A stretch of 64,000 nt of DNA from Thermoplasmata archaeon (GTDB taxonomy: Archaea; Thermoplasmatota; Thermoplasmata; UBA10834): assembly GCA_041304525.1 (NCBI GenBank), contig JBFYNF010000045.1, positions 7,479 to 71,478 on the forward strand, read 5' to 3'. The notes below the pieces were generated by a model, which had not been told where the DNA came from, ran no database searches, and saw only the letters and a list, made by a program, of their open reading frames with translations. Positions 7,717 to 52,776 of the stretch are shown one piece after another. Every line of letters begins with the position of its first letter. The stretch's first letter is position 1. The position numbers and the translations under genes were made by a program.

Positions 7717-7726
7717 TGGTGGTACC

Positions 7727-11277: not shown

Positions 11278-11739
11278 GTGTCTTACCGTATGGTAAAGAT
11301 GTTGGTTCCGTACCCGGACAAGTGCACGGGGTGCAGGTTCTGCGAGATGGCCTGCTCACTGTATCATGAAGGCAAGGTCAACCACGGCAGCGCGCGGCTG
11401 CAGGTCCACAGGAGGGATGTCAGGACCGACTTCCCAGCTGTGTGCACGCACTGCGTGTCGTGCGGGGAGGAATGTTGCGTCCTCCACTGCCCGGTCGAGG
11501 CGATCAAGAACGAGGACGGCATCGTCCGTGTCGAGGAGAGCGAGTGCACCGCGTGTGGCACCTGCGTCGAAGTGTGCCCGTTCGGAGTGATGCGCATGGA
11601 GGATGTGGCGTTCAAGTGCGACCTCTGCGGAGGGGACCCCACATGCGTCAAGTTCTGCCCGATGGGCGCCATCAAGTACGAGGAGCCGAAGCCCGAGCAG
11701 TACGAACTCGTCCGGAACCTGCTCAAGGAGGAGGAGTGA
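11278..11739 (+). CDS. 4Fe-4S dicluster ferredoxin-domain protein (AOR partner)
   Basis: Cys clusters CTGCRFCEMAC, CTHCVSCGEECCVLHCP, CTACGTCVEVCP and CDLCGGDPTCVKFCP. GTG at 11278 or ATG at 11290. Sits immediately upstream of aor. Confidence 0.8.
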   Translation: MSYRMVKMLVPYPDKCTGCRFCEMACSLYHEGKVNHGSARLQVHRRDVRTDFPAVCTHCVSCGEECCVLHCPVEAIKNEDGIVRVEESECTACGTCVEVCPFGVMRMEDVAFKCDLCGGDPTCVKFCPMGAIKYEEPKPEQYELVRNLLKEEE

Positions 11740-11740
11740 C

Positions 11741-28787: not shown

Positions 28788-28797
28788 GGTCACGGTC

Positions 28798-30429: not shown

Positions 30430-30447
30430 TCCGCGTTTGCTGGCACT

Positions 30448-30485
30448 GATAGTCAGGCCTGAGAATTGGGCGCCAACCCTTATTA
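30448..30485 (+). repeat. 38-nt promoter/operator-like element, copy A (upstream of flaI-2)
   Basis: GATAGTCAGGCCTGAGAATTGGGCGCCAACCCTTATTA matches 34189-34226 at 33 of 38 positions. It ends in a BRE/TATA-like CCAACCCTTATTA. Confidence 0.7.
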
Positions 30486-30608
30486 CTTCAGGTTCTGGAT
30501 TGGCCTTTGAGGCCACCGAGCGCAGGCTCCACAGGGCTACCTCCGCCCAAGGGTGCGGCATTGGCTCTGCTCAGGAGCCGCTTGAGGCGCCTCAGCGGAT
30601 GGGTGAGG

Positions 30609-37833: not shown

Positions 37834-39281
37834 TGAAACGCTTTCCTTTGAACTGGGGGTTGAGGTCAACGGAGCCTGATCACCCGAGGGAAGAGTGTGG
37901 GGTTTTCGCAACTGCGTCAGTGACGAACGTATCGATAGACATATTCTATGCGCTGAGGGTCCTCCAACACAGAGGTCAGGAGTCCGCAGGCATCGCGGTC
38001 TACAACCACGAGGGGATCAAGTGCATCAAGGGCATGGGGCTCGCCCATCAGGCGCTGAAACCAGATGAGGTCCAGTCCCTCAAGGGGGACTTGGGCATAG
38101 GCCATGTCCGGTATTCGACCGTCGGGTCTTCCACGATAAGCAACGCGCAGCCTTTCGTGGTGTCGACCAACTACGGCGACATCGCCCTCGCGCACAACGG
38201 CGAGATAGTCAACGCCGACAAGATCATGGACGAGCTCAAGAAGAAGGGCTGGGCGTTCATAACATCATCTGATTCGGAGATCATCGTAAGGCTCATGGCG
38301 AACGAGATATCCACCACGGGCGACCCTATCAGGGCCATCAAGAATGTCATGTCCATGATACAGGGAGCGTACTCGCTCACGGTCATGGTGGACAACCGCG
38401 TGTTCGCGGTCCGGGATCCGCTCGGCATACGCCCATTGTGCGTCGGCAGGACGAAGACGGGCTATGCTGCAGCATCTGAGAGCGTCGTGTTCGACACGCT
38501 CGGTGGGGAGTTCATCAGGGATGTCGAGCCCGGGGAGATAGTCGAGTTGCTCCAGGGCGAGATCAAGTCCCACAAGACCGGCCTCGCGAGGGGCAGGGCG
38601 CACTGCATGTTTGAGTGGGTCTACATCGCGAGGGCCGACTCGATCATCGAGGAGAAGCTCGTGTACGAGGTCAGGAGGCGCATAGGCGAGCGACTCGCGA
38701 AGGAGCAGCCGGTGCAGGCCGACGTCGTGGTGCCTATCCCTGACTCGGGAAGGTCTCACGCGATGGGGTACGCAGAGGGGTCGGGTATCAGGTACTCCGA
38801 GGGTCTCATGAAGAACCGGTATGTCGAGCGCACGTTCATCATGCCCGAGCAGTCGGACAGGACCACGAGCGTCATGCTCAAGCTCAACCCGCTCAAGAGC
38901 GTGATAAAGGACAAGAGGGTCGTCCTCGTGGACGACTCCATAGTCCGGGGCACGACAATGAGGAAGATCGTGCAGCTCGTAAGGAATGCGGGAGCCAAAG
39001 AGGTCCATGTGAGAGTGGGCTCTCCCCCGATTATCGCCCCATGCTACTTCGGCATCGACATGAAGACCAGGGACCAGTTCGCGGCTACGGGCAGGACGGT
39101 CGAGGAGATCGGGAAGATGCTCACGGCTGACAGCCTCGGATACATATCGGTCGAGGGACTCGTCGACGCCATCGGCCTGCCCGCTGGCGACCTGTGCCTC
39201 GCGTGTCTGACTGAGGAGTATCCCTTGGCCGTACCTGGGGAGAAGGTCCGGTACCAGAAGAAGCTGGACTCGTTCGCTTGA
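37833..39281 (+). CDS. purF: amidophosphoribosyltransferase (PurF)
   Basis: ECGVFA Ntn nucleophile, GIGHVRYST, the PRTase motif VVLVDDSIVRGTT, and a C-terminal Cys cluster. The ATG overlaps the L37e TGA (TGATG). Confidence 0.9.
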   Translation: MKRFPLNWGLRSTEPDHPREECGVFATASVTNVSIDIFYALRVLQHRGQESAGIAVYNHEGIKCIKGMGLAHQALKPDEVQSLKGDLGIGHVRYSTVGSSTISNAQPFVVSTNYGDIALAHNGEIVNADKIMDELKKKGWAFITSSDSEIIVRLMANEISTTGDPIRAIKNVMSMIQGAYSLTVMVDNRVFAVRDPLGIRPLCVGRTKTGYAAASESVVFDTLGGEFIRDVEPGEIVELLQGEIKSHKTGLARGRAHCMFEWVYIARADSIIEEKLVYEVRRRIGERLAKEQPVQADVVVPIPDSGRSHAMGYAEGSGIRYSEGLMKNRYVERTFIMPEQSDRTTSVMLKLNPLKSVIKDKRVVLVDDSIVRGTTMRKIVQLVRNAGAKEVHVRVGSPPIIAPCYFGIDMKTRDQFAATGRTVEEIGKMLTADSLGYISVEGLVDAIGLPAGDLCLACLTEEYPLAVPGEKVRYQKKLDSFA

Positions 39282-39485
39282 TGGACCCCGGCGACCTCAC
39301 TCGACATCGGCCTTGAGACTCTTCAACGATTGTGCCAATCTTTGATTCTTGTCCCACAAAGCACTACCCCATTCACCTTGGTGACTGATGACAGGAGACT
39401 AACAGGGCACGGAGCGGGACCGTCGAGGACGCCGCCAGACTGGACACGGGCGGCCTCGAATGGAAGACACCAAGGAAGTGAGGAT

Positions 39486-39827
39486 ATGAGGAAGGAGTTC
39501 GAGAGCGAGTTGGCGAGACAGGTATCAGGAAAGAAGAGACTCAGCAGGGCCTGGGTCATGTTGGCACTCTGTGCTGCCATTTTGGTCAGCGGGGCAGCGG
39601 CCGTGACGGCCGTAGCCGCAGGCAATGGAGATCAGCTCCAAACCCAGGACCAGCTCAAGGACGGTTCGTGCGACGACTGCGACGGCGACGGCATCTGCGA
39701 TTACGACCTAGACGGTGACGGTGTCTGTGACAATGATTGCACGTGCGACTGTGACGGCGACGGGATCTGCGACAACGACTCCGATGGAGACGGGGTCTGC
39801 GACTACCAAGAGGATTGCGTCGCCTGA
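39486..39827 (+). CDS. small membrane-anchored Cys/Asp-rich repeat protein (TSP type-3-like DGDGxCD repeats)
   Basis: ATG at 39486 after GGAAGTGAGGA. TM helix AWVMLALCAAILVSGAAAVTAVAA, then four DGDG[IV]CD units in CDDCDGDGICDYDLDGDGVCDNDCTCDCDGDGICDNDSDGDGVCDY. Confidence 0.5.
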   Translation: MRKEFESELARQVSGKKRLSRAWVMLALCAAILVSGAAAVTAVAAGNGDQLQTQDQLKDGSCDDCDGDGICDYDLDGDGVCDNDCTCDCDGDGICDNDSDGDGVCDYQEDCVA

Positions 39828-39970
39828 AGCGCCAGTGCTGAGTCGATTAGTCCTGGCAACGGATAGTGGTTGAAACCCATTCAGAACCTGTCGGGGACGA
39901 GTCGCCCCGACAGGCGATCAGTATTCTCCCGTTCCCCGCCTTGGAGAATGTAGGAAGGCAGACCGGGGAA

Positions 39971-39980
39971 GCTTTAATTA
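39971..39980 (+). promoter_or_regulatory. TATA-like box for tRNA-Ala
   Basis: GCTTTAATTA lies about 30 nt upstream of the tRNA 5' end. Confidence 0.4.
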
Positions 39981-40009
39981 CACCTACCATATACATCGAC
40001 AGCCCACAT

Positions 40010-40081
40010 GGGCCGGTAGATCAGCGGCAGATCGCTCGCTTGGCATGCGAGAGGTCGCGAGTTCAAATCTCGCCCGGTCCA
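40010..40081 (+). tRNA. tRNA-Ala (anticodon GGC)
   Basis: Hand-folded. Acceptor GGGCCGG/CCGGTCC with the G3:U70 Ala identity pair, D stem GATC/GATC, anticodon arm CTCGC-TTGGCAT-GCGAG, T arm GCGAG-TTCAAAT-CTCGC. No encoded CCA. Confidence 0.9.
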
Positions 40082-40267
40082 CACTCATTTTCCGGACATC
40101 ACTCGCACAGTCAGGGATACCATCCTCCGAGCATCTCGTCCAGGGCGACCGCCTTGTCATCCACATGCTCCTTCGTCACGACGAGAGGCGTTAGGACGGA
40201 CGAGATTGGCTGACGAGGCATCCGCTCACATGTCCGTCGGTGCAGCTCAGGGGCATCGGTGGCCGAA

Positions 40268-41296
40268 TCAGTAGATACTTCCGCCTGGCTGAGTTGATGC
40301 AAGAACGCCATCGACCGCGCTCAGCGTGTACTCCACCCCTCCGGCCCCCGTCCACGACGCGAGGTCGAATTCTGATGTCATCGTCATCTTGAACACGGAT
40401 ATGCCCGTGAAGGTCAGTGGCGTCTTGGGCTGGCAGACCTCGGGCGCGTGAGTTGTCATGAGGAAGTAGGCAGCGCCTGTCCCGTCGTTGCACGCGTCGA
40501 ACAGGGTCACATCTCCATATTCGTCCACGGCCAACGCGACCTTCTCGTCGATGCCTATGCCCATCGCCACGGAGGCCCATCCATCCTGGACAATGCGCGC
40601 CATGAATGTCACGAGCCGGCCCATCCTATCCCTCGCCACGAAATGGCTGTCGGTGATCTTGTCGTCCATGTTCGGCATGGTGAGGAAGTCCTGCTCAAGG
40701 GTCAACCTCGGGTGATACGGGTTCGTCAGAGCCTCATCCGAGTCGATTGTGTTCCTCTCGGCGGAGAAGGAGAACTCGCCGAGCACCGCGAGGCCCGCAC
40801 TCGTGCCCCCGATCGGCGCGCCCTTGTCGCGCACATAGTGTATCGCATCCTCGACTGGGGTTCCCTTCCACATCCTCACATAATCCCACTGGTTGCCTCC
40901 CGCGATGAAGAGCGCATCGGCGTTGCGGATCTTGTCAAGCACGAAGACGTCGGAGCACGCCTCGTCCTTCAAGAAGATTATGGTCTCGCACGAATCGACG
41001 CCTCCAAGCTGTTTGAATATCCATGGGTTGTAAGCGTCGGTCCCAGAACAACGTATCACTACGAAGTCACCGCCGCCCGATCTCGCAATCATCCACTGCA
41101 TGGCCTCGGCGACGTCCGTGTCCCCGCCTGCTAGAAGCAGACCGGGGGTGGTCACCGTGTCGACGTCGGCGGGGTCCCCGTCTACATAGTACTCATAAGT
41201 CGCCTTCGCACCCGATGCCGACAACGATACCATCGTTGTCGACAGCACCATGATGAAAACCAAAGTCCCTGCTACAGCACGCTTCGCGAGATACAC
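40268..41296 (-). CDS. secreted peptidase S51 family (cyanophycinase/dipeptidase E-like)
   Basis: N-terminal signal, ALFIAGGNQWDY and nucleophile motif GGTSAGLAV. Confidence 0.7.
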   Translation of the reverse strand: MYLAKRAVAGTLVFIMVLSTTMVSLSASGAKATYEYYVDGDPADVDTVTTPGLLLAGGDTDVAEAMQWMIARSGGGDFVVIRCSGTDAYNPWIFKQLGGVDSCETIIFLKDEACSDVFVLDKIRNADALFIAGGNQWDYVRMWKGTPVEDAIHYVRDKGAPIGGTSAGLAVLGEFSFSAERNTIDSDEALTNPYHPRLTLEQDFLTMPNMDDKITDSHFVARDRMGRLVTFMARIVQDGWASVAMGIGIDEKVALAVDEYGDVTLFDACNDGTGAAYFLMTTHAPEVCQPKTPLTFTGISVFKMTMTSEFDLASWTGAGGVEYTLSAVDGVLASTQPGGSIY

Positions 41297-41434
41297 GATC
41301 CCCTCGCCCCCAAAAGCGAAACGGGTTGAGGGTTACATTATGGTTCCGCCAGTAGCCTTCTGACCGTCCCGGATGAGGAGGCAGGCCGGCCAAGGACGGA
41401 CCTCGCCATACAACGGACGCGACGGAGTGAGCGA

Positions 41435-41446
41435 CACCTATATATC
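41435..41446 (+). promoter_or_regulatory. TATA-like box upstream of 41496 gene
   Basis: CACCTATATATC lies about 50 nt upstream of the ATG, with RBS AGAGGAG between them. Confidence 0.4.
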
Positions 41447-41495
41447 AGGGGCCGTCATCAGCGTTATGCTTCAATGAGCATATAGAGGAGATACA

Positions 41496-43544
41496 ATGAG
41501 CGAAGACTCCAAAGTGATCAATGAGAACCCCGAATCCGGGACGGAATCCGAAAGCATAAGCCCGCCTAAGAAGACGGGCGTCTCCCCCGCGATGAAGATG
41601 GTTGCATTGGCAGCCGTAGTCATCCTCCTGGTGGCAGTGCCCATGGGGTACTTCATCCTGAGCCAGGACGATGATGAGGAGGCAAACTTCTCGGTCGCGC
41701 TCACCGGCAAGGGCGGAGAGGAGGAGACCGCGGATCTTGCATCGCTCGAGGACATGGACTTCGTAGAGAACATCTCATCGTACCAGAACAGGTTCAACAA
41801 CTGGAATGGCCTGGGGACATATGGTGGCGTTGAGCTCAGGGACCTCGCGGACCTCGTCGGCGGGATGGCCGAAGGGGACGTGATGACAGTGACCGCCTCC
41901 GACGGATACGCCGTCAACCTGTCGTACGAGCAGGTCTACGCAGGCACGGAGTTCCTCGCAGTCCAGGGCCAGATCATCCTCGCATACGAGTTCAATGGAA
42001 GCCTCATGACGGAGGAGGACTGGCCCATGATAGCCGTCCTCGCCCCGGACGAGGCGTTCAGCAACGACGACTTCAACGCGACAGCCCCGGACGCGCCCGA
42101 GTTCGAGATGCTCACTTCGGCAGGGTCGCTCTGGGTCAAGATGGTCTCGAGTATCGAGATCGGCGAGCTGCAGGAACAGGATGTCGTCCTCACGGTCGAT
42201 GGCACAACGACGGTCGACCTCACGATGTACGAGCTGGAGAACCTGGAGTCGCTCACGTCGAACGGCAGCTTCATCAAGTCGACGGGGACTGTCGAAGGAC
42301 CGTTCGAGTTCACCGGCGTGGCTCTGAAGGACCTCGTCGACCTCGTGTACTCGGGCGACGACTACTCAGTCGAGGTGGTCGCCACTGACGGTTACGCCAT
42401 GACCTACAATTACTCGCAGGTCGAGAACGGCACTTTCGAGCAATACGACTCCGCAGGGACATCCCTGGGGTTCGACAACTTCACGATGGTCGTGGCTTAT
42501 GCGCAGGACGGATTACCCCTGGTAGACATGGTCCTGCGCATAGCCATCATTGACGACAGCGAACCGATCACGGACGGCCACTTCTGGGCCAAGTATGTCC
42601 GCACGGTGAATGTGTTGTCACCCGTGCGGGAGTACACACTAGAACTCAACGGCACGACGGTCTACGAGATGGACAGACAGACCTTCGAATCCGTCGCATC
42701 CTGCGACTACCATGCAGCCAGCTGGTCCTTCGAGAACGAAACTGGGACGCACACCTACACAGGCGTCGCCCTTTGGACGCTCGTATCAGCGGTCGACGGC
42801 GCGGACGGACCGGACACTGAGTATCTGTTCAACGACCTGCTCGCCTTCGAGGGATACATTGTGAGGGTCACTGCCGAGGATGGCTACAACAAGGCCTTCA
42901 CATCGATGCAGGTCGCCCGGAACGATACTATCATCGTTGCCAACAAGCTCGACGGCGAGCCGCTGCCGGACGATGAGTGGCCCCTTAAGATCGTCGGCGA
43001 CTGGCTGGCCAGCAACCTGAAGGTCAGCCAGGTTGTGAACATATCCCTCGAGGATCTCCAACCAGTTCCTGACTGGGAACTCACCATCGTCGGCACCGAG
43101 ACGGTGACGATCAGTGCTGAGACCTTCGCGTCGATATACTACTCCGGCCTCCACGGAACATGGTTCAACTACACGAACTACGGCGGATGGCATGCGACGT
43201 ACCACAACTACACCGACGACGAGCTGGTTGACCACACATACGCGGGCATTCCGCTCTGGGTGCTGATCGCAGCCGTCGACGGCGAGGACCTATACCACTA
43301 CGAGTTCAACGACACCCTCGCAGAAGCCGGGTACGATGTGAAGGTCATCGCATCGGACGACTACAACACGACGTTCTCGATAGATGACGTCGCGTACAAC
43401 AACAGCTTCGTCGTCGCGTTCATGCTGGACTGGATGGCCCTGATCGATGACGAGTACCCGCTCAAGCTCACGAGTGAGTACCTGTTCGGGTCACAGAAGA
43501 TCAAGTCCGTAGCAACGATCGAACTGATAGGACTGCCCGCGTGA
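41496..43544 (+). CDS. membrane-anchored secreted protein with four tandem SUOX/YedY-fold-like (Oxidored_molyb-like) domains
   Basis: N-terminal TM helix. Four ~150-aa repeats each carry [YF].GV.L.DL..LV ... V.A.DGY....[SY]..V ... [IL]..[AY]...G..L....WP[LM]K pattern. No conserved catalytic Cys is evident. Confidence 0.55.
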   Translation: MSEDSKVINENPESGTESESISPPKKTGVSPAMKMVALAAVVILLVAVPMGYFILSQDDDEEANFSVALTGKGGEEETADLASLEDMDFVENISSYQNRFNNWNGLGTYGGVELRDLADLVGGMAEGDVMTVTASDGYAVNLSYEQVYAGTEFLAVQGQIILAYEFNGSLMTEEDWPMIAVLAPDEAFSNDDFNATAPDAPEFEMLTSAGSLWVKMVSSIEIGELQEQDVVLTVDGTTTVDLTMYELENLESLTSNGSFIKSTGTVEGPFEFTGVALKDLVDLVYSGDDYSVEVVATDGYAMTYNYSQVENGTFEQYDSAGTSLGFDNFTMVVAYAQDGLPLVDMVLRIAIIDDSEPITDGHFWAKYVRTVNVLSPVREYTLELNGTTVYEMDRQTFESVASCDYHAASWSFENETGTHTYTGVALWTLVSAVDGADGPDTEYLFNDLLAFEGYIVRVTAEDGYNKAFTSMQVARNDTIIVANKLDGEPLPDDEWPLKIVGDWLASNLKVSQVVNISLEDLQPVPDWELTIVGTETVTISAETFASIYYSGLHGTWFNYTNYGGWHATYHNYTDDELVDHTYAGIPLWVLIAAVDGEDLYHYEFNDTLAEAGYDVKVIASDDYNTTFSIDDVAYNNSFVVAFMLDWMALIDDEYPLKLTSEYLFGSQKIKSVATIELIGLPA

Positions 43545-43553
43545 GACCAGACC

Positions 43554-45041
43554 ATGGAGATGCGTGAGAAGAGGACTTGGACAGTAATAGCTGTCGCGGC
43601 CAGCGCGGTGGTGATACTGGCTGGCCTAGGCCTTCCCATGCTCCGAGAGAGCGTGGAGGCCGTCGGCGGTGACATACTGTCCCAGACCTCCGACACCCTC
43701 ACGGTCAGGTGCCTGGGACCTGAGATCACGCTCACCCTGAACGGCTTCGAGGGTGAGGTGACCTTCACAAACTGCTTCCCAAACTCCACACTTTCTGGTA
43801 ATGATGACCCGGCCACGATAGATGGGTCGAACATATCCTGCACCGTTCGAGGTCCCGAGACGGAGTTGCGTCTCTCAGCTCAGGTCAAGGAGTCGTTCAG
43901 GTTCGCAGTCATGGGGGACAGTCAAGGGCAGAATGGCATACTCGCGGAAGCACTGGAACGCGTCGACGGATGCGAGTTCATTCTCCACCTCGGAGACATG
44001 ACCCCCTCGGGGCAGCCGTCCGAATTCGACGCCTTCGAATCGACCCTGGGAGCCATCACGATCCCCGTCCTCACCACACCTGGGAACCATGACGTCAAAC
44101 TCGACGGGGGCGATGAGTATACATCCAGGTTCGGGTCCTCGGCGTACAGTTTCGAGTACTCTGGCATAAGGTTCGCATCCGTCGATTCATCGGATCAGGT
44201 GATCGACGAGGGTGAGATTGATTGGCTGAGGGACACTTTCAAGGGGGCCGAAAGGAAGGTCCTGGTCACGCACATGCCAAGCTACGATCCGTTCGGAGAC
44301 AACCACACGCTAGATGCTGCATCTTGTGACAGGATACGGCAGTTCGTCCTCGAAGAGGATGTGGATGCCGTGTTCACTGGTCATATCCACGCATTCCACT
44401 ACATGCAGATGGAGAGCACCGACTTCATCATCACTGGCGGCGCGGGCGGAACCCTGGTAGACGGCGTCCATCACATCATCATCGTGAGCGTTGACGACAC
44501 CGGCTTCTCCTATGAGAAGATCGACCTCGATTACGTCCCACCTACGTCGCCACACGTGCAGGTCATCGGGAAGGATGGCTCGACCCTCAACATCACATAC
44601 GAGGAGCTGATGCTCATGGACCTCGTGGAGAACGACTCGTCATACGAGAACCTGTACGGCAACATCGCCGGACAGGGACACTACAGGGGAGTCCTCGTCC
44701 GGGACCTGCTTGAGCTCGTCGGTGGCATGACCGAGGGAGACCTGCTCACAATCACCGCAATAGATGGATACATCCAAGAGTTCGGGTTCCTGAACGCATG
44801 CCCCGATGCGACATGGCTGAATCTGCAGGGTGAGATGATAGTCTCGGTCGAATTAGACGGGGTGCTGGCGCCCACATGGACTGAGGGCCCACGGATAGCC
44901 ATGCTACCAGAGGATGGCCTGTACAGCAACTCCGACTGCGAACTCACCTCGTACGAAGGGCAGGGATACTCGACGTACGAATCCGCGGGCGCGAGATGGG
45001 TGAAGAACACGTTCACTATCACGGTGGAGGCTGCAGCATGA
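43554..45041 (+). CDS. membrane-anchored secreted metallophosphoesterase with C-terminal SUOX-fold-like domain
   Basis: N-terminal TM. Calcineurin-like motifs VMGDSQG, HLGDMT, GNHD, VTHMP, GHIHAFH. The C-terminal YRGVLVRDLLELVGG...ITAIDGY... matches the repeat of 41496..43544. Confidence 0.7.
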   Translation: MEMREKRTWTVIAVAASAVVILAGLGLPMLRESVEAVGGDILSQTSDTLTVRCLGPEITLTLNGFEGEVTFTNCFPNSTLSGNDDPATIDGSNISCTVRGPETELRLSAQVKESFRFAVMGDSQGQNGILAEALERVDGCEFILHLGDMTPSGQPSEFDAFESTLGAITIPVLTTPGNHDVKLDGGDEYTSRFGSSAYSFEYSGIRFASVDSSDQVIDEGEIDWLRDTFKGAERKVLVTHMPSYDPFGDNHTLDAASCDRIRQFVLEEDVDAVFTGHIHAFHYMQMESTDFIITGGAGGTLVDGVHHIIIVSVDDTGFSYEKIDLDYVPPTSPHVQVIGKDGSTLNITYEELMLMDLVENDSSYENLYGNIAGQGHYRGVLVRDLLELVGGMTEGDLLTITAIDGYIQEFGFLNACPDATWLNLQGEMIVSVELDGVLAPTWTEGPRIAMLPEDGLYSNSDCELTSYEGQGYSTYESAGARWVKNTFTITVEAAA

Positions 45042-46114
45042 GGAAGTACTACTTCTCCACGAAGGACCTCGTGACCATCGCCTTGCTCTCGGCGCTCGGC
45101 GGAGTGCTGTCGACATACATCGGGTACCTCGGCAACATGGTCAACCACATCATCGGCGTTCCGTTCGGGGCGGGCCAGTTCTTGGCCGGACTGCACGTGA
45201 TATGGATCATGCTTGCCCTTGGCATCACGCGTAAGAAGGGGGCGGCCACCGTGACGGGATTCCTGAAGGGAGTGATCGAACTCTTCCTCGGGAGTACGCA
45301 TGGAATCGTCATAGTCATCGTTTCGCTAATCCAGGGATTGATACCAGACATCGTTCTGTTCAGTGACAAGGCCAAGGCGAACAGGAGCCCGATGTTCTAC
45401 GCACTGGCGGGGGGTTTCTCCGCTGCATCCAATGTGATTGTGTTCCAACTGTTCTTCTTCTCTGGCATACCTCTGTACCTCGTCGCGATGCTCTGCATGC
45501 TGGCAGCCGCTTCAGGCATCATCTTCGGAGGATGGCTTGTCCTGGAGATGCTCGAGTCGCTCGAGCTGTCAGGGATGATACTCGGCAAGAGGAGGGTCGT
45601 GGTGGACGACCCGAATGTCGACGAGAGCGTGTGGGTCAAGGGGAAGGCCGAGAAGCGCAAGGCGCTCACGGCGGTGATCGCCGCCACGATCTTCCTGTCA
45701 GCGTTCACGGTCGGCGCCGTATACTACTTCACATTCGTGTTCAAGCTCACAGAGGAAGGAACCATCGAAGTCTCCGGCGCGGTCACGGACCCATACACAT
45801 TCCGATACGAGGACTTCAGCGACACGCAGGTCACAGTCAACGCGGAGCTGATTGGCACCGTGACACACGTCGACCCGAGAAACTATACAGGTATCACTCT
45901 GAATGAAATCGTGAGTGAGGCGGGACCTGATGAAGGAGCCACCGAGGTCGTGGTCACTGGCCGGGACGGTTACTACGCCGTATTCGAGCTGGACGACGTC
46001 GCGGCGGACGACGGACTCATCATAACTCAAGAGGATGAGCTGTTCACGATAGTCGCTGCCAACTACGAAGGGGCATACTGGGTGGAGGATGTCGTGTCGG
46101 TCGAAGTGAGGTAG
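45038..46114 (+). CDS. ECF-transporter S-component-like membrane protein fused to an extracellular SUOX-fold-like domain
   Basis: ATGA overlap with the upstream gene. N-terminal ~190 aa are polytopic (STKDLVTIALLSALGGVLS...), followed by an extra TM helix. The C-terminal ~120 aa read YTGITLNEIVSEAG...VTGRDGYYAVFELDDV. ECF A and T genes follow directly. Confidence 0.55.
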   Translation: MRKYYFSTKDLVTIALLSALGGVLSTYIGYLGNMVNHIIGVPFGAGQFLAGLHVIWIMLALGITRKKGAATVTGFLKGVIELFLGSTHGIVIVIVSLIQGLIPDIVLFSDKAKANRSPMFYALAGGFSAASNVIVFQLFFFSGIPLYLVAMLCMLAAASGIIFGGWLVLEMLESLELSGMILGKRRVVVDDPNVDESVWVKGKAEKRKALTAVIAATIFLSAFTVGAVYYFTFVFKLTEEGTIEVSGAVTDPYTFRYEDFSDTQVTVNAELIGTVTHVDPRNYTGITLNEIVSEAGPDEGATEVVVTGRDGYYAVFELDDVAADDGLIITQEDELFTIVAANYEGAYWVEDVVSVEVR

Positions 46115-47578
46115 ATGCTCGACGTCATGGACCTTTACGTAAGGTACGAGAATAGGTCGAAGCCCGCAGTGGACGGACTCTCACTGCACGTCGACCTAGG
46201 CGAGTTCGTCCTTCTCATGGGCGACTCCGCATCTGGGAAGTCGACAGCCATGCAGGCCGTGTGCGGATTCATCCCCGACATCATACCCGCGGAGAAGAGA
46301 GGTGAGGTGCGGATAGGCGGACAGACGTATGAGGACGCCACTGCAATCTCCAGCGTCGCGTGCATGGTGCAGCAGGACCCTGAGACGCAGTTCTGCACGG
46401 AGACCGTCGAGGAGGAAGTCGCCTTCGGTCCTGAGAACCTGAACGTGCCCAGGGCGGATATCAGGAAGGCCGTGGATGAATCTCTTGCGAGCGTGGGCGC
46501 GTCCCACCTCGTCAGCAGGAAGCTCTCTACGCTCTCTGGGGGTGAGAAGCAGAAGGTCGCGATAGCGTCGATGCTCTCGGTGAGACCTCGGCTCCTCATC
46601 CTCGATGAACCCACATCGAACCTCGACCCGCGATCTGTCTCCGATGTCGTCGGAGTCATAGATGCCCTGAGACGGAGGAAAGAGATGACCATCGTGGTCG
46701 TCGAGCACCGGCCAGGAGGGTTCAAGGACCTCGCCTCGAGAGTCATGGTCATGGACAAGGGGATGCTTGTGCTGGACTGTGGACGGCATGATCCATCTTT
46801 CGCAGAGCGCATCGGGAAGGCCGAGGCGAAGCCTTCGCCACCGATACCCTCCAAGAGCGAACTGGCAGTCGTCTCGGTCAAAGGATTGTCGTACGGAGTC
46901 GATGGCACGAAGATTCTCGATGACGTGACATTCGACCTCAAAGATTGCGCTGTCGTGGCGCTAATGGGGGAGAATGGAGCCGGAAAGACGACACTTCTCA
47001 GACACCTCATGGGGCTGCTGACCCCACAGTCCGGAAGTGTCGACGTGTTAGGACATCCTCAGGACAAGGATGTGAGGACTGAACCTTGGGTCCTCGGGAG
47101 GGAAGTCGGGTTCGTCTTCCAGAATCCGAACCACCAGATCTTCGAGAGGACGGTCGAGAAGGAGATACTCTTCGCCGCGGAGAACTATGACGCACCGAAA
47201 GGCGAGGCACTGAAGGCGGTCGAGGAATTCGAGGCCTCCGAGGAGGTCAGAAAGTTCGTACACCCCCATTGCCTCAGCTTCGGTCAGAAGAGGAGGGTGA
47301 ACATCCGGTCTGCGTCGTCCCACGGCCCCAGGCTGATACTCATGGACGAACCGTTCTCGGGACAAGATGCCGAGAACGCAGAGGCCATCCGAGGGATGAT
47401 AACGAACCTCCAACGAGCGGGCAAGACGGCCGTCGTGGTCACGCACGACATACAGTTCGCGAAAACCTCGTGCACCGATGTCGTATTCATGAGGGCCGGG
47501 AAAATCGTCAGAACTGGTCCTGTGAGCAGCGTGCAGGAAAGCGAATGGGAGGAATTGTTCACCGGGGTGACCAGATGA
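46115..47578 (+). CDS. ecfA: fused duplicated ECF-type ABC ATPase (EcfA-EcfA')
   Basis: Two NBDs: Walker A GDSASGKST and GENGAGKTT, signatures LSGGEKQKV and a degenerate LSFGQKRRV, Walker B LILDEP and LILMDEP. Confidence 0.85.
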   Translation: MLDVMDLYVRYENRSKPAVDGLSLHVDLGEFVLLMGDSASGKSTAMQAVCGFIPDIIPAEKRGEVRIGGQTYEDATAISSVACMVQQDPETQFCTETVEEEVAFGPENLNVPRADIRKAVDESLASVGASHLVSRKLSTLSGGEKQKVAIASMLSVRPRLLILDEPTSNLDPRSVSDVVGVIDALRRRKEMTIVVVEHRPGGFKDLASRVMVMDKGMLVLDCGRHDPSFAERIGKAEAKPSPPIPSKSELAVVSVKGLSYGVDGTKILDDVTFDLKDCAVVALMGENGAGKTTLLRHLMGLLTPQSGSVDVLGHPQDKDVRTEPWVLGREVGFVFQNPNHQIFERTVEKEILFAAENYDAPKGEALKAVEEFEASEEVRKFVHPHCLSFGQKRRVNIRSASSHGPRLILMDEPFSGQDAENAEAIRGMITNLQRAGKTAVVVTHDIQFAKTSCTDVVFMRAGKIVRTGPVSSVQESEWEELFTGVTR

Positions 47579-48333
47579 CGGCAAGACTCCCTGAGGAGGG
47601 CACCCCCAGACTGAACCCCATCACCAAGGCGCTCCTGCTGGTGATGTTCTCCATACTCGTGCTCCTCGTGGTCGACCCGGTCCACATGTCCGCGATCGTG
47701 GTATGCGTGCTCGTAGCCAAAGAGCATTTCCACGCGCGAGGACTCGTCACAAGAGGCATCATTGGATTCGCGATGGCCATCTTCGTGGCGCAGATTCTAT
47801 TCAATCACTCAGGGGATGAGCTCGCGAGCTGGTCCGCATTCTCGGTCACGACAGGTGGCATCTACGATGGTGTGTCTATAGCCGGGAAGTTCCTGAGCTT
47901 GATCATGATGTCATGGGTGTTCGTCGCGACGACCTCACCCTCTGAGCTATCATCCGCCCTCACGACCGCGGGATTCCCCTACAGGTACGCGTTCCTGCCA
48001 GCGCTTTCCATGCGGTTCGTACCGGTGTTCCAGTTCGAGCTAGCCACTGTCAGGGAGGCGCAGGTCACGAGAGGGATGAAACTCGACAGGAGCATCAAGG
48101 GGATTGTGCGGTCCGCGAGGTACACGACCATGCCAATGCTCATGACGGCGATGTCCAGGGTCAACTCCATCACGGCATCCATGACGGGCAGAGGTTTCGG
48201 GATGCACAAGACCAGGACCCAGCTCCAGCCCATAAGGATGACTGCATGGGACCTCGCGTTCCTAGCCAGTTCGGCAGTATTCGTGGCAGTGACCTTCCTG
48301 GTCACAAGATGCCCGGCACTCCAAATCGCCTGA
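47575..48333 (+). CDS. ecfT: ECF transporter T component (CbiQ/EcfT family)
   Basis: ATGA overlap with ecfA. Polytopic, with the ..LSMRFVP....E...V.EAQ..RG motif region typical of EcfT. Confidence 0.8.
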   Translation: MTARLPEEGTPRLNPITKALLLVMFSILVLLVVDPVHMSAIVVCVLVAKEHFHARGLVTRGIIGFAMAIFVAQILFNHSGDELASWSAFSVTTGGIYDGVSIAGKFLSLIMMSWVFVATTSPSELSSALTTAGFPYRYAFLPALSMRFVPVFQFELATVREAQVTRGMKLDRSIKGIVRSARYTTMPMLMTAMSRVNSITASMTGRGFGMHKTRTQLQPIRMTAWDLAFLASSAVFVAVTFLVTRCPALQIA

Positions 48334-49080
48334 TCATCCGACCCTCAGCTCACCGTTCTCGATCCTCGTCGCGTATCGTAGGAGTTCGCTCCCGTTCGAC
48401 CTGAAGGGAGCGTAATGTCTGATGGCGGCCGACACGGTAGCAGCAAGCCCGTCCGTGCGGTTCCGTCCGGAATGGGCCCAGTAACAACTCGTGAAATGCC
48501 TTGCGAAAGAAACCTTCGCCGCGGTGAAGACAGGGTCAGTCATGAGTACACTGGCGCACAACTGTCCCAGGTCGTTGAGTGTGTCTGCGGACGAGGCTTC
48601 CTCGAAGTCGAGGCCGGTGATGCCGGAGGGGGTGATGATGAAGTTCTTGAGGACGGCGTCCCCGCGAGCAAGCTTGAAATCGAATGCGATGTGGAAAGAT
48701 GACATCCATTTGGCCAGGTTGTCCGCGAGTTCTCTTTGCGCCTCGGACAGATCGGCCCCCGAAGAGTGGGAGAACAACTCATCGAAGACCACGGCCGCGG
48801 ATTCGCCCTCAATCGGTTCCATCACGATCGCATCTTCGACCATGGTGACGGGTAGCGGCACGGGGACTCCCTTCTCACGGCACCAGGATAGCACACTGAA
48901 CTCAGCTTGGGCACGCTCCTTCCATTCGTCCCTGAAGACCTTCACGACATATTCCCTTCCGCCGACAGATGTTCTGAACACGCGGTTCTTCTTGCTCTGC
49001 ATGTATGGGCCGATGCGGCCGTTCCCCAAGTCGTGCAATGACATCTTGATACTCATCGTCACTCGCCCACGGATTCCCAA
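48334..49080 (-). CDS. protein-kinase-like fold protein (Bud32/RIO/APH-like, degenerate)
   Basis: N-lobe-like EYVVKVFRD...E..VL......GVPVP...V....IVMEPIEG and C-lobe-like GDAVLKNFII....ITGLDFEEA. The catalytic HxD reads RGD. Confidence 0.45.
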   Translation of the reverse strand: MGIRGRVTMSIKMSLHDLGNGRIGPYMQSKKNRVFRTSVGGREYVVKVFRDEWKERAQAEFSVLSWCREKGVPVPLPVTMVEDAIVMEPIEGESAAVVFDELFSHSSGADLSEAQRELADNLAKWMSSFHIAFDFKLARGDAVLKNFIITPSGITGLDFEEASSADTLNDLGQLCASVLMTDPVFTAAKVSFARHFTSCYWAHSGRNRTDGLAATVSAAIRHYAPFRSNGSELLRYATRIENGELRVG

Positions 49081-49268
49081 GACGCGTTCCCCCTATGCCT
49101 CCGCGAAATGAATACCTACTGTCGGTCGGGAACTCCGCGAGACTTCCTCAAGGGACCTCGGCTTGACCCCGTTTCGCAGATGCTGCCCTACGATCTGTGA
49201 AGTCACACTGACTGACCGAAATCTTTATTTAGCGGAAAGTCGGACTCACCGGGTGCGAGGGGGAGTCT

Positions 49269-50555
49269 ATGAGAACGACCTGTTCGAAGAGGATTATAGC
49301 GGCATTGCTGATTGTGACTGCGTTTTCGATGGTGAATGCGTTCGCCGTCGCGAAGCCGGACAGCTTGTTTGATGCGCCGGAAGATACATTGGTCGATGCG
49401 GAATGGACCATAATAGTGTATCTGGCTGCGGACAACAACCTGCAGCTCGCGGCTGTTGGCGACCTTCAGGAGATGGAGGCCGTCGGACCCATGGATGGTA
49501 TCAACGTCGTGGTCCTGATGGACACCATTGACATAACCGAAGGGACGCACTGGTACGCCCTCGGTGATGGCGAGACGCATTTCGATGCGGACGGCGCCCC
49601 GAGCATCTGTGACTGCGACGAGGTCGCAGGCGGCTCTCCTGGCGAACTGAACATGGGTGACCCGGAGACCCTGACCTACTGCCTCAAGACCGCTGTTGCA
49701 TTCGCCCCGGCTGACAACTACATGCTCATCCTTTGGGACCACGGAGGCGGCTGGTGGGGCGTGTGCTATGATGAGGGTTCACTGACGCCCACTGGGAGCA
49801 CGGACAGACTGATAATGGATGAGGTCCAGCAGGGAATCGAAGCATCTGGAGTCGACCTTGACGTCATCGGGTACGACGCGTGCTTCATGGGCATGATTGA
49901 GATAGCCTATGAGAACAGGAACCTGGCCGAGTACATGGTCGCGTCAATCACAACTGTGCCTGGAGATGGCTGGGACTACACGGCCTGGCTGGGTGGAATC
50001 GACGGCACTGACAGGAGCCCGTACGCCGTGAGCGAACTGGCTGCCTCGACATATGTCGATTTCTACACCATATGCATGGGCGTTGGCCTGGGCGGATTCC
50101 CTTACACTAGCATGGGCGTGTTTGACCTCACAACGGTCGAGAACCTCGTAATCAACGGCATAGACCCGGTGGCCGCGGCGCTCGTACCACTGACCGAGGA
50201 GTACTACCTCCGCGGGCCGATAGAGTCCTCGGAATCGCAGACGCCGCAGATACAGTTCCACGGCGAGGCGTTCCCGTTCACTGACATCGGACTGTTCATG
50301 ACACTGCTTGGCGAGAAGATACCAGAACTGAGCGTAGAAACCGCTAAGGCCGTCACACTGCTCGACGATACGATCCTGTGGTTCGACTATGTCGCGCCTG
50401 ACGCAGACATGTGTCTCCGGTCATTCGGGATGTCCATATACTACACCATAAGCGGGGACAAGCTGTACGACAACTACCTCACCAGCAACCTCGACATGGT
50501 GGACGACACGAACTGGGACGAGTTCCTCTGGGCCTTGGCGATGACGGCGGAATAG
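49269..50555 (+). CDS. secreted clostripain-family cysteine peptidase (C11)
   Basis: Signal peptide. IIVYLAADNNL, VVVLMD, catalytic His in LILWDHGGGWWG and catalytic Cys in IGYDACFMG. Confidence 0.8.
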   Translation: MRTTCSKRIIAALLIVTAFSMVNAFAVAKPDSLFDAPEDTLVDAEWTIIVYLAADNNLQLAAVGDLQEMEAVGPMDGINVVVLMDTIDITEGTHWYALGDGETHFDADGAPSICDCDEVAGGSPGELNMGDPETLTYCLKTAVAFAPADNYMLILWDHGGGWWGVCYDEGSLTPTGSTDRLIMDEVQQGIEASGVDLDVIGYDACFMGMIEIAYENRNLAEYMVASITTVPGDGWDYTAWLGGIDGTDRSPYAVSELAASTYVDFYTICMGVGLGGFPYTSMGVFDLTTVENLVINGIDPVAAALVPLTEEYYLRGPIESSESQTPQIQFHGEAFPFTDIGLFMTLLGEKIPELSVETAKAVTLLDDTILWFDYVAPDADMCLRSFGMSIYYTISGDKLYDNYLTSNLDMVDDTNWDEFLWALAMTAE

Positions 50556-50755
50556 GCCCGCCGACGCGCAAAGGGATTCAGGACCCGCACCGACAACTAG
50601 CGCGACCATTAGCATGCAGCGGATGCCTTCCTCCCCCTCGGTCGACTGGCGCCATACTAGCCCGCCAGGCTAGATAGGACTGTCGAGCTTGAGACCGGGG
50701 GGAAGCAGGGAGTATATATCCCACAACGACTAGAAACCCCACAACGGTGTGCTAT

Positions 50756-51196
50756 ATGGGATTCCTAGACAAGATGAGACCCGCCGGATCAGCCATCACC
50801 GGCGGCTCAGCTAAGGTGAGCATCGAATACCCGCACCAGCCAATGATGCGTGGCGATGCCTTGCCGGTCAAGGCGACCATCATGTCGATGGGAAAGGAGG
50901 TCAAGTCAGGGGGTGTTTTCGTCGACATCCACGCGACCGAAGCAGGACAGGTGAAGTGCAAGCACTGCGGCCAGATGACCCAGGTGCAGCAGGAGACCAT
51001 CAAGCAGGCGATACCGGTCGGGCCAGCATTCGTCCTACAGCCGAACGAGACCAAGGTCGTTGAAGCGACCATACAGATGCCAATGGGCCAGCTGTCCTAC
51101 AGCGGCCAGGTCAGACACGAGTGGAGGATACGCGCCAGACTGGATGCGTTCGGCAACGACCCGGACTCCGGATTCCAGGTAATCGAGATACGTTGA
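50756..51196 (+). CDS. Spo0M-like (arrestin-fold) protein
   Basis: N-terminus MGFLDKM....G.AKV and beta-rich sequence resemble the SpoOM family. TATA-like AGTATATATCC sits at 50711-50721. A GTG alternative start is at 50747. Confidence 0.45.
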   Translation: MGFLDKMRPAGSAITGGSAKVSIEYPHQPMMRGDALPVKATIMSMGKEVKSGGVFVDIHATEAGQVKCKHCGQMTQVQQETIKQAIPVGPAFVLQPNETKVVEATIQMPMGQLSYSGQVRHEWRIRARLDAFGNDPDSGFQVIEIR

Positions 51197-51267
51197 AATG
51201 AAAACTCTTCGGACCGGCCATGTTTCATCCCGCCGGCCCAACGATTTCATTCTCCGACATCGGCCAC

Positions 51268-52776
51268 TCAAGGATACTCTAGTCGTCTCGTATCGAATCC
51301 CTTCGCATACTCCCGGAGCAGAACAGCCATGCCCTTGCTCACCTCAGGCTCGAGCGGCTCGGGTGTATGAGTTTTCAGGAGTTCGTACATACGCTCCTTC
51401 GCACGTTCGTCGGCGCTCTTAGACCCTTTGGCGACCCACTGCTGCCTGGTCGACCTGTCTGATAGCCTGGCCGTATGGTGCTCATTCCTGAACTGCGTCA
51501 GCGTCTCCTTCCTCTTCAGGTAGTTGCCCTGAGGACCAGTCTTGTGGATGACGTCTACCGACAGAGTGCTCTCGTCGACCACGATGCCAGCAGCGATTCT
51601 GTTCACGTTCGAGGCGATTTCGTCATCAATAATCAGCTGAACGGGGGAGAAGGCGTTGAACGCCTCCGTAGAACCCATGAAGAGTTCGGCGAAGTCCGCC
51701 CCGGCCAGAGTGGCCATCAACGCCGCTTGCGTCTTCTCGTACGAAGTCTGAGCGTCAACCATCTTCGAGTCGCTCTGGACACCCATGTCGCTCGGCAGGC
51801 CATAGAACTTAGCGAGTTCGACCGTGCCGACCCCCAAGAGGGAGAACTCGGGCGCACCTGTGGCGGCGATGCCTGACCTCATGTCCAGAGGACATGAGAC
51901 GGACCCGTAGACGACCCTTGGGGATTTCGTGACGCACTTCGCTATCGCTATCGAGCTCAGTATCTCGGCGTTCTGCTGGACGAGCAGACCAGCCAGCGAG
52001 GCGGGCGCTGTCCCCCCTGCGAGCGCCATGACCATGATGAAGACCGGCAGGTCCATCTCCGCATACTTCAGGAGCGTCTCGAGCATGTGCTTGTCGTGCC
52101 CCAGAGGGCTAATCGGGTCGATGTAGCCCGGGAAGAGCGGAGTCTTCCTGAGGAGTTCCCTGTCCCCCAGGAGTAGCTCCGAGACGCGGAGCATGAGCTC
52201 GAACTCGATGCTGTCTCCGCTGCTCCCATAACTCGGCTTGGACGTGTGCATCAGACTCGTGACCCACATGACCATGCTCTGGGCGTCGGTATGGACGTCG
52301 CCCGGATAGACGGGCACATAGCCGACGGTGCATGTGTCCAGGGCGTCCAGGAGCCGGCTTATGAGGATTCCGTCCTTGAGGGTCGACGGCCGATACTCAC
52401 CCGTTTCGGGATCGATGTAGAACAGACACTGCGCCCCAGGGCCGAACTTGGTCCTGCCGTCGACGGCATCCACTGACCGGCTCTTATTTCTTGCATGCCA
52501 TCGGAAGTTGTGGGCGCAACTCTTGACCGCCTCCGCGACAGAAGACTCGGACATGCGCACGATCCTCGACTTCCGATCAACTGAGTAACCGTTGCTCTGA
52601 AGCATGTCGAGCACTTCTGGGGAGTCCACGAACACGCCTGTCTTCTCGAGCACTTCGAGGGTCGCGCCGTGAATCGCCTCCAGATTGGCTCTCCCAAGCA
52701 CCGTGAGCATGTTCTTCCCAGAAACCATGTGTACCTCTGCTCCGCCGATAGTGATGGCGTTGGTTCGGTTGACCAT
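51268..52776 (-). CDS. MttB-superfamily methyltransferase homolog (non-pyrrolysine type)
   Basis: 502-aa uninterrupted ORF with MttB-like sequence (LEAIHGATLEVLEKTGV..., MALAGGTAPASLAG). No in-frame TAG. Confidence 0.8.
   Translation of the reverse strand: MVNRTNAITIGGAEVHMVSGKNMLTVLGRANLEAIHGATLEVLEKTGVFVDSPEVLDMLQSNGYSVDRKSRIVRMSESSVAEAVKSCAHNFRWHARNKSRSVDAVDGRTKFGPGAQCLFYIDPETGEYRPSTLKDGILISRLLDALDTCTVGYVPVYPGDVHTDAQSMVMWVTSLMHTSKPSYGSSGDSIEFELMLRVSELLLGDRELLRKTPLFPGYIDPISPLGHDKHMLETLLKYAEMDLPVFIMVMALAGGTAPASLAGLLVQQNAEILSSIAIAKCVTKSPRVVYGSVSCPLDMRSGIAATGAPEFSLLGVGTVELAKFYGLPSDMGVQSDSKMVDAQTSYEKTQAALMATLAGADFAELFMGSTEAFNAFSPVQLIIDDEIASNVNRIAAGIVVDESTLSVDVIHKTGPQGNYLKRKETLTQFRNEHHTARLSDRSTRQQWVAKGSKSADERAKERMYELLKTHTPEPLEPEVSKGMAVLLREYAKGFDTRRLEYP

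Follow-up and report, generated by a model that had tools for sequence, protein, structure and literature searches.

We analysed a 64,000-nucleotide stretch of a Thermoplasmata archaeon genome (contig JBFYNF010000045.1 of assembly GCA_041304525.1, forward-strand positions 7,479 to 71,478; hereafter "the window", in whose coordinates all positions are given). Within it lies a conserved six-gene module that encodes an energy-coupling factor (ECF) transporter, two further surface proteins and a kinase (Table 1). The five plus-strand genes have boundaries that overlap or abut: the phosphoesterase stop codon overlaps the S-component start codon in the sequence ATGA, the S-component and ATPase genes meet at TAGATG, and the ATPase and T-component genes again share an ATGA. 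The kinase gene is convergent, and its stop codon abuts that of the EcfT gene. A candidate archaeal promoter, recognised by its motifs, precedes the first gene.

Table 1. Features of the ECF module and its immediate flanks
Feature	Position	Strand	Evidence and remarks
S51 peptidase, cyanophycinase-like	40268-41296	-	PF03575, 34 bits; flanks the module, outside it
Candidate promoter	41439-41490	+	TATA-like TATATAT at 41439-45 and Shine-Dalgarno-like GAGGAG at 41485-90; precedes the first module gene
Conserved six-gene module	41496-49080		Five plus-strand genes and one convergent minus-strand gene; between the S51 and C11 genes
682-aa membrane-anchored protein with four tandem PruR/SUOX-fold domains	41496-43544	+	PF00174, 58 bits
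Domain 1 of the 682-aa protein, long form	41685-42170	+	39% identical to the phosphoesterase C-terminus, E 1e-27
Domains 2-4 of the 682-aa protein, short form	42171-42626, 42627-43085, 43086-43541	+	Domain alignment
495-aa metallophosphoesterase, extracellular, N-terminally anchored	43554-45041	+	PF00149, 66 bits
Phosphoesterase C-terminal PruR/SUOX-fold domain, long form	44541-45038	+	Model and profile
358-aa ECF S-component, YkoE family	45038-46114	+	PF09819, 73 bits (cutoff 25.2)
S-component PruR/SUOX-fold domain, short form, predicted extracellular	45767-46111	+	Model and Foldseek
Fused EcfA-EcfA double ATPase, YkoD-like	46115-47578	+	Two ABC_tran domains
EcfT (CbiQ family), 252 aa	47575-48333	+	PF02361, 87 bits; start is the ATG overlapping the ATPase stop
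Cytoplasmic atypical kinase (APH/RIO/Bud32-like)	48334-49080	-	PF01636 (APH), 49 bits; RIO1, 26 bits
C11 (clostripain-family) cysteine peptidase	49269-50555	+	PF03415, 154 bits; flanks the module, outside it

A member of an S-component family, an EcfA-type ATPase and an EcfT protein are encoded together, and by these family assignments the transporter is a group I ECF system. The ATPase scored 332 bits against TIGR04520 (ECF_ATPase_1), above the cutoff of 315, and 315 bits against TIGR04521. The S-component gave a profile match to the YkoE structure 5EDL (E 1e-9). In its AlphaFold model (pLDDT 80.6), a basic linker on the cytoplasmic side joins a six-helix core to a seventh helix, after which comes a beta-rich C-terminal domain; in Foldseek searches the membrane part matched 5EDL (target TM-score 0.76, with 22% sequence identity to YkoE) and the C-terminal part matched SorA, YedY and PruR. 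S-components have both termini in the cytoplasm. Because the termini of the core are on that side, and because the positive-inside rule is satisfied around helix 7, the model would place the C-terminal domain outside the cell.

The YkoEDC transporter of Bacillus subtilis, which is associated with thiamine and hydroxymethylpyrimidine (HMP), resembles the module in several respects. Its S-component is from the same PF09819 family, with 5EDL being both the best structural and the best profile match, and the two systems have in common a fused double ATPase, a dedicated T component and organisation as a single operon. They differ in that the S-component of the module has a seventh transmembrane helix and a predicted extracellular PruR/SUOX-fold domain, in that the module also encodes surface proteins bearing this domain, among them an ecto-phosphoesterase, together with a kinase, and in that the bacterial orthologues of the module stand under molybdenum/tungsten cofactor (Moco/Tuco) rather than thiamine pyrophosphate (TPP) riboswitches.

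The first gene of the module encodes a protein with a single N-terminal transmembrane segment; inspection of its sequence revealed no twin-arginine (Tat) motif, and phmmer found no match to it in the PDB. Domain 1 of this protein matches the C-terminal 160 residues of the phosphoesterase. The phosphoesterase itself has a purple-acid-phosphatase-like motif set (GDxG, GD, GNHD, H and GHxH, all present), and its six metal ligands (D122, D148, N178, H240, H277 and H279) are invariant in 38 homologues. A preliminary description of this DNA had listed it as a secreted phosphoesterase. The gene is where that description put it and its product has an export segment; however, the N-terminus looks like a signal anchor, and the gene belongs to the ECF module rather than encoding a free scavenging hydrolase.

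The 682-aa protein, the phosphoesterase and the S-component all carry a PruR/SUOX-fold domain. Modelled alone, the C-terminal domain of the phosphoesterase reached a pLDDT of 94, and the top Foldseek match was PruR (7KOM; E 2e-7, target TM-score 0.74). All 28 significant matches were PruR proteins or Moco domains of SUOX proteins, the next match having an E-value of 0.5, and a sequence profile of the domain alone placed four PruR structures first. In PruR, a pterin is held between Tyr104 of an N-D-Y motif and Trp160; PruR has no Mo-ligand Cys, the corresponding position being Trp70 (PMC11194511). A D-G-Y motif in the module domains aligns to N102-D-Y104 of PruR, with Asp in place of Asn. In the S-component, D310-G311-Y312 and W348 are invariant (30/30); in the phosphoesterase domain, D404 is conserved in 38/38, Y406 in 33/38 and W482 in 37/38 sequences, where the correspondence of the Trp to PruR Trp160 derives from an alignment with SorA and from its C-terminal position. 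The Cys/Trp70 position is occupied by the Asn of an invariant G-N motif in one domain subtype (the long form, below) or by another residue, and in no copy by Cys.

Two subtypes of the domain could be distinguished: a long form with a conserved insertion of ~40 residues, and a short form without it. The insertion (DGLYSN.DCE.TSYEGQGY..Y.SAGARW; phosphoesterase residues 454-482, window ~44913-44999) is almost invariant, with Cys462 conserved in 37/38 sequences, and may extend the PruR cleft or contact a metal or dithiolene. With 235 cluster representatives among 1.84 billion, the long form is rare; it occurs as phosphoesterase fusions, multi-repeat giants and small stand-alone proteins.

No twin-arginine motif was seen on inspection of the archaeal or bacterial copies. 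The domains are exported by Sec or lipoprotein-type signals or by a preceding transmembrane helix; the bacterial orthologues carry lipoprotein lipoboxes, as substrate-binding proteins of Gram-positive bacteria do. Since a Sec-type route or a transmembrane helix exports the domains unfolded, they cannot carry a cofactor inserted in the cytoplasm, and we infer that any pterin must be bound outside the cell. Lacking both a Mo-ligand Cys and Tat export, they are not expected to be cofactor-containing enzymes. Their Moco-domain fold is that of the SUOX molybdoenzymes (SorA, chicken sulfite oxidase, YedY/MsrP and SoxC), from which they differ in having neither the Mo-coordinating Cys nor dimerisation, heme or other catalytic domains, nor Tat export. 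Judged by their residues, they instead have the features of PruR, that is, a small exported SUOX-like domain without a Mo-ligand Cys and with a conserved Tyr and a C-terminal Trp. Compared with the PruR structures (7KOM, 7KOS/7KOU, 7KP2, and 7RKB with neopterin), the module domains have no P-W motif, the long form having Asn there and adding the conserved insertion; they are arranged in tandem or fused to the phosphoesterase and the transporter; their genes lie not in a pruR-dcpA context, with no GGDEF/EAL neighbour, but among ECF, phosphoesterase and kinase genes; and they come from archaea and anaerobic Gram-positive bacteria instead of Proteobacteria.

By the classical definition, an ECF transporter has no extracytoplasmic binding protein and needs no binding domain there. 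The module departs from this textbook rule and is an ECF variant: its S-component bears a predicted extracellular PruR/SUOX-fold domain, and two further surface proteins encoded with it share that fold.

The module is widely conserved. We collected the genomic contexts of S-component relatives, which occur in 227 species-level genomes, and then analysed 80 species-level loci, scoring neighbouring genes by tblastn. Among the assessable Thermoplasmatota loci, the S-component is adjoined by the phosphoesterase in 41/46, by EcfA in 47/47, by EcfT in 40/40 and by the kinase in 37/37, and an orthologue of the multi-domain protein lies upstream in 36/38. The same module core is found in syntrophic Bacillota and Asgard archaea, and thus in three phyla. 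The S-components of the bacterial orthologues are 43-47% identical to that in the window over their full length, and the gene order is the same.

An Rfam scan of 22 Bacillota loci detected 14 RF01055 (Moco/Tuco) aptamers, scoring 61-78 bits (cutoff 36). In eight loci the aptamer lies on the same strand as, and directly upstream of, module genes. At loci L058, L061, L067 and L073 it is followed by a gene for a SUOX-like lipoprotein and then by the phosphoesterase, S-component, ATPase and T-component genes; at L080 it precedes the phosphoesterase gene, and at L069 and L071 it precedes genes for giant repeat proteins. The aptamer-headed operons of L065 and L071 also hold genes for TupA-like binding proteins, a permease and a MOT1-family molybdate transporter. 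All hits cover 116-122 nt of the 135-position model, and the P3 stem is deleted in both of the alignments that we inspected; the P3-less class of Moco riboswitches has been assigned to the tungsten cofactor (Regulski 2008, PMC2408646). At L067 the aptamer is directly followed by a terminator, an arrangement in keeping with negative feedback on an operon for uptake or biosynthesis.

The study that described these riboswitches noted, as an unexplained exception, P3-less RNAs in Syntrophomonas wolfei upstream of genes for a "putative sulphite oxidase", and mentioned an operon of the same species with "genes of unknown function" (PMC2408646). Evidently, the genes of that exception are the module described here, which thus accounts for it. 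Within the Moco/Tuco regulon (RF01055; moa, mod, tup), the bacterial orthologues stand behind P3-less aptamers, often with tupA-like and MOT1 genes. An ECF transporter, a phosphoesterase and a kinase are not listed as members of this regulon in the literature that we examined. The archaeal module copy differs in having no riboswitch: none was detected in the window at the gathering threshold, nor at E<=5 over positions 39200-51400.

Two features of the Bacillota loci are worth recording in their own right. Giant surface proteins with PruR/SUOX-like repeats (1453-1859 aa and longer) are encoded at L071 (14273-20399), L069 (1091-5753) and L065 (13480-19506); they have their own Tuco-type riboswitch, some adjoin genes for dockerin- or SLH-domain proteins, and they look like cell-surface capture arrays. 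At L071 (7837-14162), one riboswitch heads genes for two TupA-like binding proteins, followed by the S-component, ATPase, T-component and kinase genes, with no phosphoesterase gene. This is possibly an ECF system assisted by substrate-binding proteins, although the TupA-like proteins may serve the Tup permease and ATPase encoded just upstream.

The family names of the transporter would suggest a plain YkoEDC-type thiamine/HMP importer, with the phosphoesterase acting on thiamine phosphates and the kinase being a thiamine/HMP kinase. The S-component belongs to PF09819/COG4721, JGI annotation names such proteins for thiamin/HMP, YkoE is the closest solved structure, and the fused double ATPase resembles YkoD. 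Moreover, the thiamine kinase of Escherichia coli is an APH-family enzyme. However, no TPP riboswitch was detected in the window or in the 22 orthologous Bacillota loci, among which Moco/Tuco riboswitches occur instead; identity to YkoE is merely 22%; and the fold of the fused and co-encoded domains is a pterin-binding one. We therefore regard this possibility as highly improbable, the most so of those that we weighed.

The kinase has no membrane segment, and its K47, E60, D141, N146 and D158 (the Lys, the Glu, the D..N pair and a DFE-type Asp) are invariant in 24 homologues. While phmmer found no PDB match, profile searches against the PDB gave weak and mixed matches: TP53RK (1e-5), RIO (1e-4) and amicoumacin kinase (5e-3). 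In Bacillota the kinase is present in 6/11 loci, on the same strand as the module in four of the six.

In another reading, the SUOX-like proteins would be extracellular sensors, that is, PruR-type receptors of a pterin signal, or oxidoreductases loaded with their cofactor outside the cell, with a regulatory kinase and an accessory ECF transporter. PruR is a signalling rather than a transport protein (PMC11194511), the kinase resembles the RIO/Bud32 protein kinases as much as it does small-molecule kinases, and the bacterial genes were interpreted in Regulski 2008 as sulphite oxidases that use Moco (PMC2408646). Against this reading stand the missing Mo-ligand Cys, the missing Tat signal, the fusion of one domain copy behind a transmembrane helix of a transporter subunit, the lack of a DcpA-type partner and of a membrane segment in the kinase, and the strict translational coupling with the ECF genes; the terminator directly after the L067 aptamer suits feedback on uptake or biosynthesis. 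We consider a sensory or redox role improbable.

It is likely, in our view, that the module serves uptake related to the Mo/W cofactor. Membership of riboswitch regulons served to define the ECF vitamin transporters (PMC3766115); applied to the Moco/Tuco regulon, the same logic makes salvage of the cofactor or of one of its precursors the simplest role for an ECF importer. We favour a pterin over a metal as the ligand because a relative of the S-component binds pyrimidine/thiamine and because the capture domains have a pterin-binding fold; thus, the assignment rests on fold, on conserved contact residues and on membership of the regulon. Whether the module captures, trims, imports and rephosphorylates a molybdopterin-type pterin we judge to be evenly poised. 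A still more specific proposal, to which we give somewhat less credence, is that the importer is dedicated to salvaging the organic part of the W/Mo cofactor (molybdopterin (MPT), its dinucleotides or cyclic pyranopterin monophosphate (cPMP)), which would make it the first such transporter in any organism and the first ECF system with extracytoplasmic capture domains.

In the pathway that we propose, surface PruR-like domains would, under scarcity of the W/Mo cofactor, capture an exogenous molybdopterin-type pterin, be it the free cofactor, a dinucleotide form, MPT or cPMP. The ecto-phosphoesterase would trim off the nucleotide, or a phosphate held as dinucleotide, cyclic ester or monoester; the S-component, which has a capture domain of its own, would pass the pterin to the ECF motor for import; and the cytoplasmic kinase would rephosphorylate and thereby trap it. 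The imported pterin might then feed tungstopterin enzymes such as the aldehyde:ferredoxin oxidoreductase (AOR) encoded elsewhere in the window. A logic of dephosphorylation, import and rephosphorylation is known from the salvage of NAD as nicotinamide riboside, of FAD as riboflavin, and of thiamine. By analogy, Haemophilus NadN/PnuC/NadR and UshA-type ecto-nucleotidases offer a parallel, since an extracellular calcineurin-like phosphoesterase is combined there with an importer and a cytoplasmic kinase, as it would be in the module; transporter class, kinase fold and presumed substrate are different.

The main competing explanation is that the ligand is metal. The PruR-like domains and the binuclear site of the phosphoesterase would bind or release tungstate or molybdate, perhaps in thio- or complexed form, for import of the oxyanion by the ECF transporter. 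Tuco-type riboswitch control and the presence of tupA-like and MOT1 genes in the same operons are as expected for a metal transporter. Like oxyanion sites, the pocket of the long form has many Ser, Thr, Tyr, Asn and Arg among its conserved residues; SUOX active sites bind oxyanions, and 6Y0K, with phosphate, is among the fold matches. Tungstate and molybdate are also classical tight ligands of purple-acid-phosphatase-type centres. Nevertheless, oxyanion import by the module would be redundant, since the same riboswitch operons already hold Tup and MOT1; one operon would then have two or three oxyanion importers. S-components of the YkoE family bind small organic heterocycles, 5EDL being annotated as an HMP/thiamine permease, and the metal-type S-components of ECF systems (CbiM, NikM) are of a different family. 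Metal uptake would also leave unexplained the invariant, active-type kinase and the pterin-stacking Tyr and Trp. We conclude that a metal substrate is unlikely, though less so than a sensory, redox or thiamine-related role.

Several points weigh against pterin salvage. A pterin is a predicted ligand, as are the roles that we assign to the phosphoesterase and kinase. The PruR cleft is truncated and binds small pterins, not Moco (PMC11194511), and the insertion of the long form might or might not enlarge the equivalent cleft. S. wolfei has been reported to have MPT synthesis genes (PMC2408646), so that salvage would not be obligatory there. Lability of free MPT and Moco is a further point, though the hosts of the module are strict anaerobes. 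By sequence, the kinase is as distant from protein kinases (Bud32, RIO) as from small-molecule APH kinases, and it could act as a protein kinase. No RF01055 aptamer was found in the window or in seven archaeal/Asgard loci, and no TupA, TupB, MOT1 or AOR gene was found near the archaeal modules; the link to Mo/W in the window is therefore a transfer by orthology from the bacteria, across the S-component identities given above. Finally, the parts do not always occur together: L065 and L067 have the phosphoesterase without an adjacent kinase, and L071 and L072 have the kinase without an adjacent phosphoesterase.

We found no description of the module in the literature that we searched. No ECF transporter linked to a Moco riboswitch was found there, with a mention in an older ECF survey or in RegPrecise remaining possible; no paper paired YkoE with molybdenum, and ECF transporters were paired with tungsten solely in the case of the cobalt system CbiMNQO. 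Moco uptake is known solely in Caenorhabditis elegans, for which no transporter has been identified (PMC7849362), and according to a 2026 review how pterins cross bacterial membranes is unknown (PMC13259868). A riboswitch-defined module present in three phyla, joining capture domains of a pterin-binding fold to a vitamin-type importer, is a concrete candidate for pterin uptake. If it does import pterins, anaerobic communities of sediments and digesters (Thermoplasmatota, Asgard archaea and syntrophic Bacillota) would exchange precursors of Moco/Tuco, as is the case for B12 and thiamine. Pterin salvage would then also explain "orphan molybdoenzyme" genomes: prokaryotes that have molybdoenzymes with neither a Moco pathway nor a known Mo transporter are on record under the term "orphan molybdoprotein" (PMC6147048).

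The module is flanked by genes for two peptidases. The S51 protein aligns to the cyanophycinases 7UQV and 3EN0. The Ser of its GTSAG motif is conserved, and the His of DSHF..R.R..GRL, the Glu of GIGIDE and an Arg cluster align to 7UQV, leaving the Ser/His/Glu triad intact. Against the TIGR02069 cyanophycinase model it scored 69.7 bits, below the cutoff of 126.6; hence, by sequence, it is a member of the S51/cyanophycinase family and not an orthologue of the characterised enzymes, and its likeness to cyanophycinase would imply specificity for beta-Asp-Arg isopeptides rather than general proteolysis. The His-Cys dyad is present in the C11 protein, whose WDHGGGW and YDACFM motifs match those that hold the catalytic residues of 6N9J; a score of 59.9 bits against the NCBIfam clostripain equivalog (cutoff 550) indicates that it is not that equivalog. 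Thus, both peptidases keep the catalytic residues and family motifs of the cyanophycinases (CphB/CphE) and C11 peptidases (PmC11, 6N9J), while falling below the NCBIfam equivalog cutoffs for the characterised enzymes. We judged secretion by a heuristic, namely a hydrophobic N-terminal segment preceded by basic residues, and the two peptidases and the phosphoesterase each have one such segment. The N-termini of the S51 (...SLSASGA/KA) and C11 (...VNAFA/VA) proteins look like cleavable Sec signals, and no twin-arginine motif was seen in any of the three hydrolases on inspection of their sequences.

The preliminary description had reported both peptidases correctly with respect to position, motifs and peptidase family, and their signal-like N-termini fit its label of secreted. 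It had also joined them with the phosphoesterase into a cluster of secreted hydrolases for extracellular protein degradation; read more broadly, such a cluster would break down detrital protein and organic phosphate outside the cell. All three enzymes are indeed present with intact catalytic residues and export signals; an M20 homologue, an Opp-type binding protein and AOR are encoded in the window; and C11 peptidases have been reported in protein-degrading sediment Thermoplasmata (PMC6461988). However, of the 23 Thermoplasmatota loci that extend at least 6 kb beyond the module in either direction, S51 adjoins the module in three and C11 in one. Both peptidase genes are transcribed divergently from the module. 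The S51 protein is cyanophycinase-like, and the phosphoesterase is coupled in translation to, and conserved with, the ECF transporter in three phyla. Because the adjacency is not conserved while the phosphoesterase goes with the ECF genes, the three hydrolases do not make up a unit, and we regard the hydrolase-cluster reading as very unlikely. The S51 and C11 peptidases fit the known peptide-scavenging habit of sediment Thermoplasmata and flank the module by chance. We also considered that they might free protein-bound cofactor for the module, an idea that we dropped since they are not co-conserved with it.

Apart from the window, only its two closest relatives (L005 and L006) have the C11 gene beside the module. 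Other relatives, at 70-75% identity, have a 149-aa gene and an MttB homologue directly after the kinase gene, with no C11 gene intervening (window 49081-50746 compared with L007-L011), which suggests that C11 is a recent insertion in the lineage of the window. In the window, the MttB-family methyltransferase (51268-52776, minus strand; 502 aa) has no in-frame stop codon and scored 409 bits against the pyrrolysine trimethylamine methyltransferase model (cutoff 525); it is likely a non-pyrrolysine quaternary-amine methyltransferase. The unannotated 149-aa gene (50747-51196, plus strand) is paired with the MttB homologue in L007, L008, L010 and L011.

Gene and family scans indicate that the window is archaeal, and an archaellum operon is present. 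Cluster mates more than 90% identical, retrieved by exact-sequence look-up, carry the name "Thermoplasmata archaeon", and the closest genome loci are from Thermoplasmata/Methanobacteriota metagenome-assembled genomes; both bear out the Thermoplasmata lineage proposed earlier. Family scans likewise confirmed the M20 homologue (941-2458), the stalked peptide-binding protein (SBP_bac_5 with a PKD stalk, 2693-6601) and AOR (11603-13570) that had been described elsewhere in the window; a gene for S3Ae is also present. A peptide-degrading lifestyle, as proposed in the preliminary description, is plausible for the host. It matches the report of C11, C25 and other extracellular peptidases in genomes of sediment Thermoplasmata (MBG-D/Thermoprofundales; PMC6461988) and, for that very reason, adds nothing new. 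The part of the proposal that did not stand is the grouping of the three hydrolases: the phosphoesterase is a gene of the transporter module, the S51 protein is cyanophycinase-like, and the juxtaposition is specific to the lineage.

Other features of the window are of separate interest. The 1302-aa Opp-type binding protein with PKD stalk domains is encoded together with two permeases (2693-8659, plus strand); the permease genes are followed by the S3Ae gene, instead of by the usual two Opp ATPase genes. Directly after the S3Ae gene, a full-length Rfam tRNA match is stretched over 105 nt (9567-9671, plus strand), where ARAGORN made no call; this is probably an intron-containing archaeal tRNA gene. 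Within the archaellum operon, two consecutive genes for FlaI-like T2SSE ATPases (559 and 583 aa; 28750-32258, plus strand) lie downstream of a gene for a KaiC-like FlaH. A minus-strand gene (59169-61925) encodes a 918-aa protein with HTH, AAA and TPR domains, of the STAND/MalT-like regulator type. Lastly, just upstream of a tRNA-Ala(GGC) gene (40010-40082), a 165-aa open reading frame (39330-39827, plus strand) encodes four Cys/Asp-rich repeats (DGDG[IV]CD...) after a hydrophobic segment; the four recall the calcium-binding thrombospondin-type-3 repeats.

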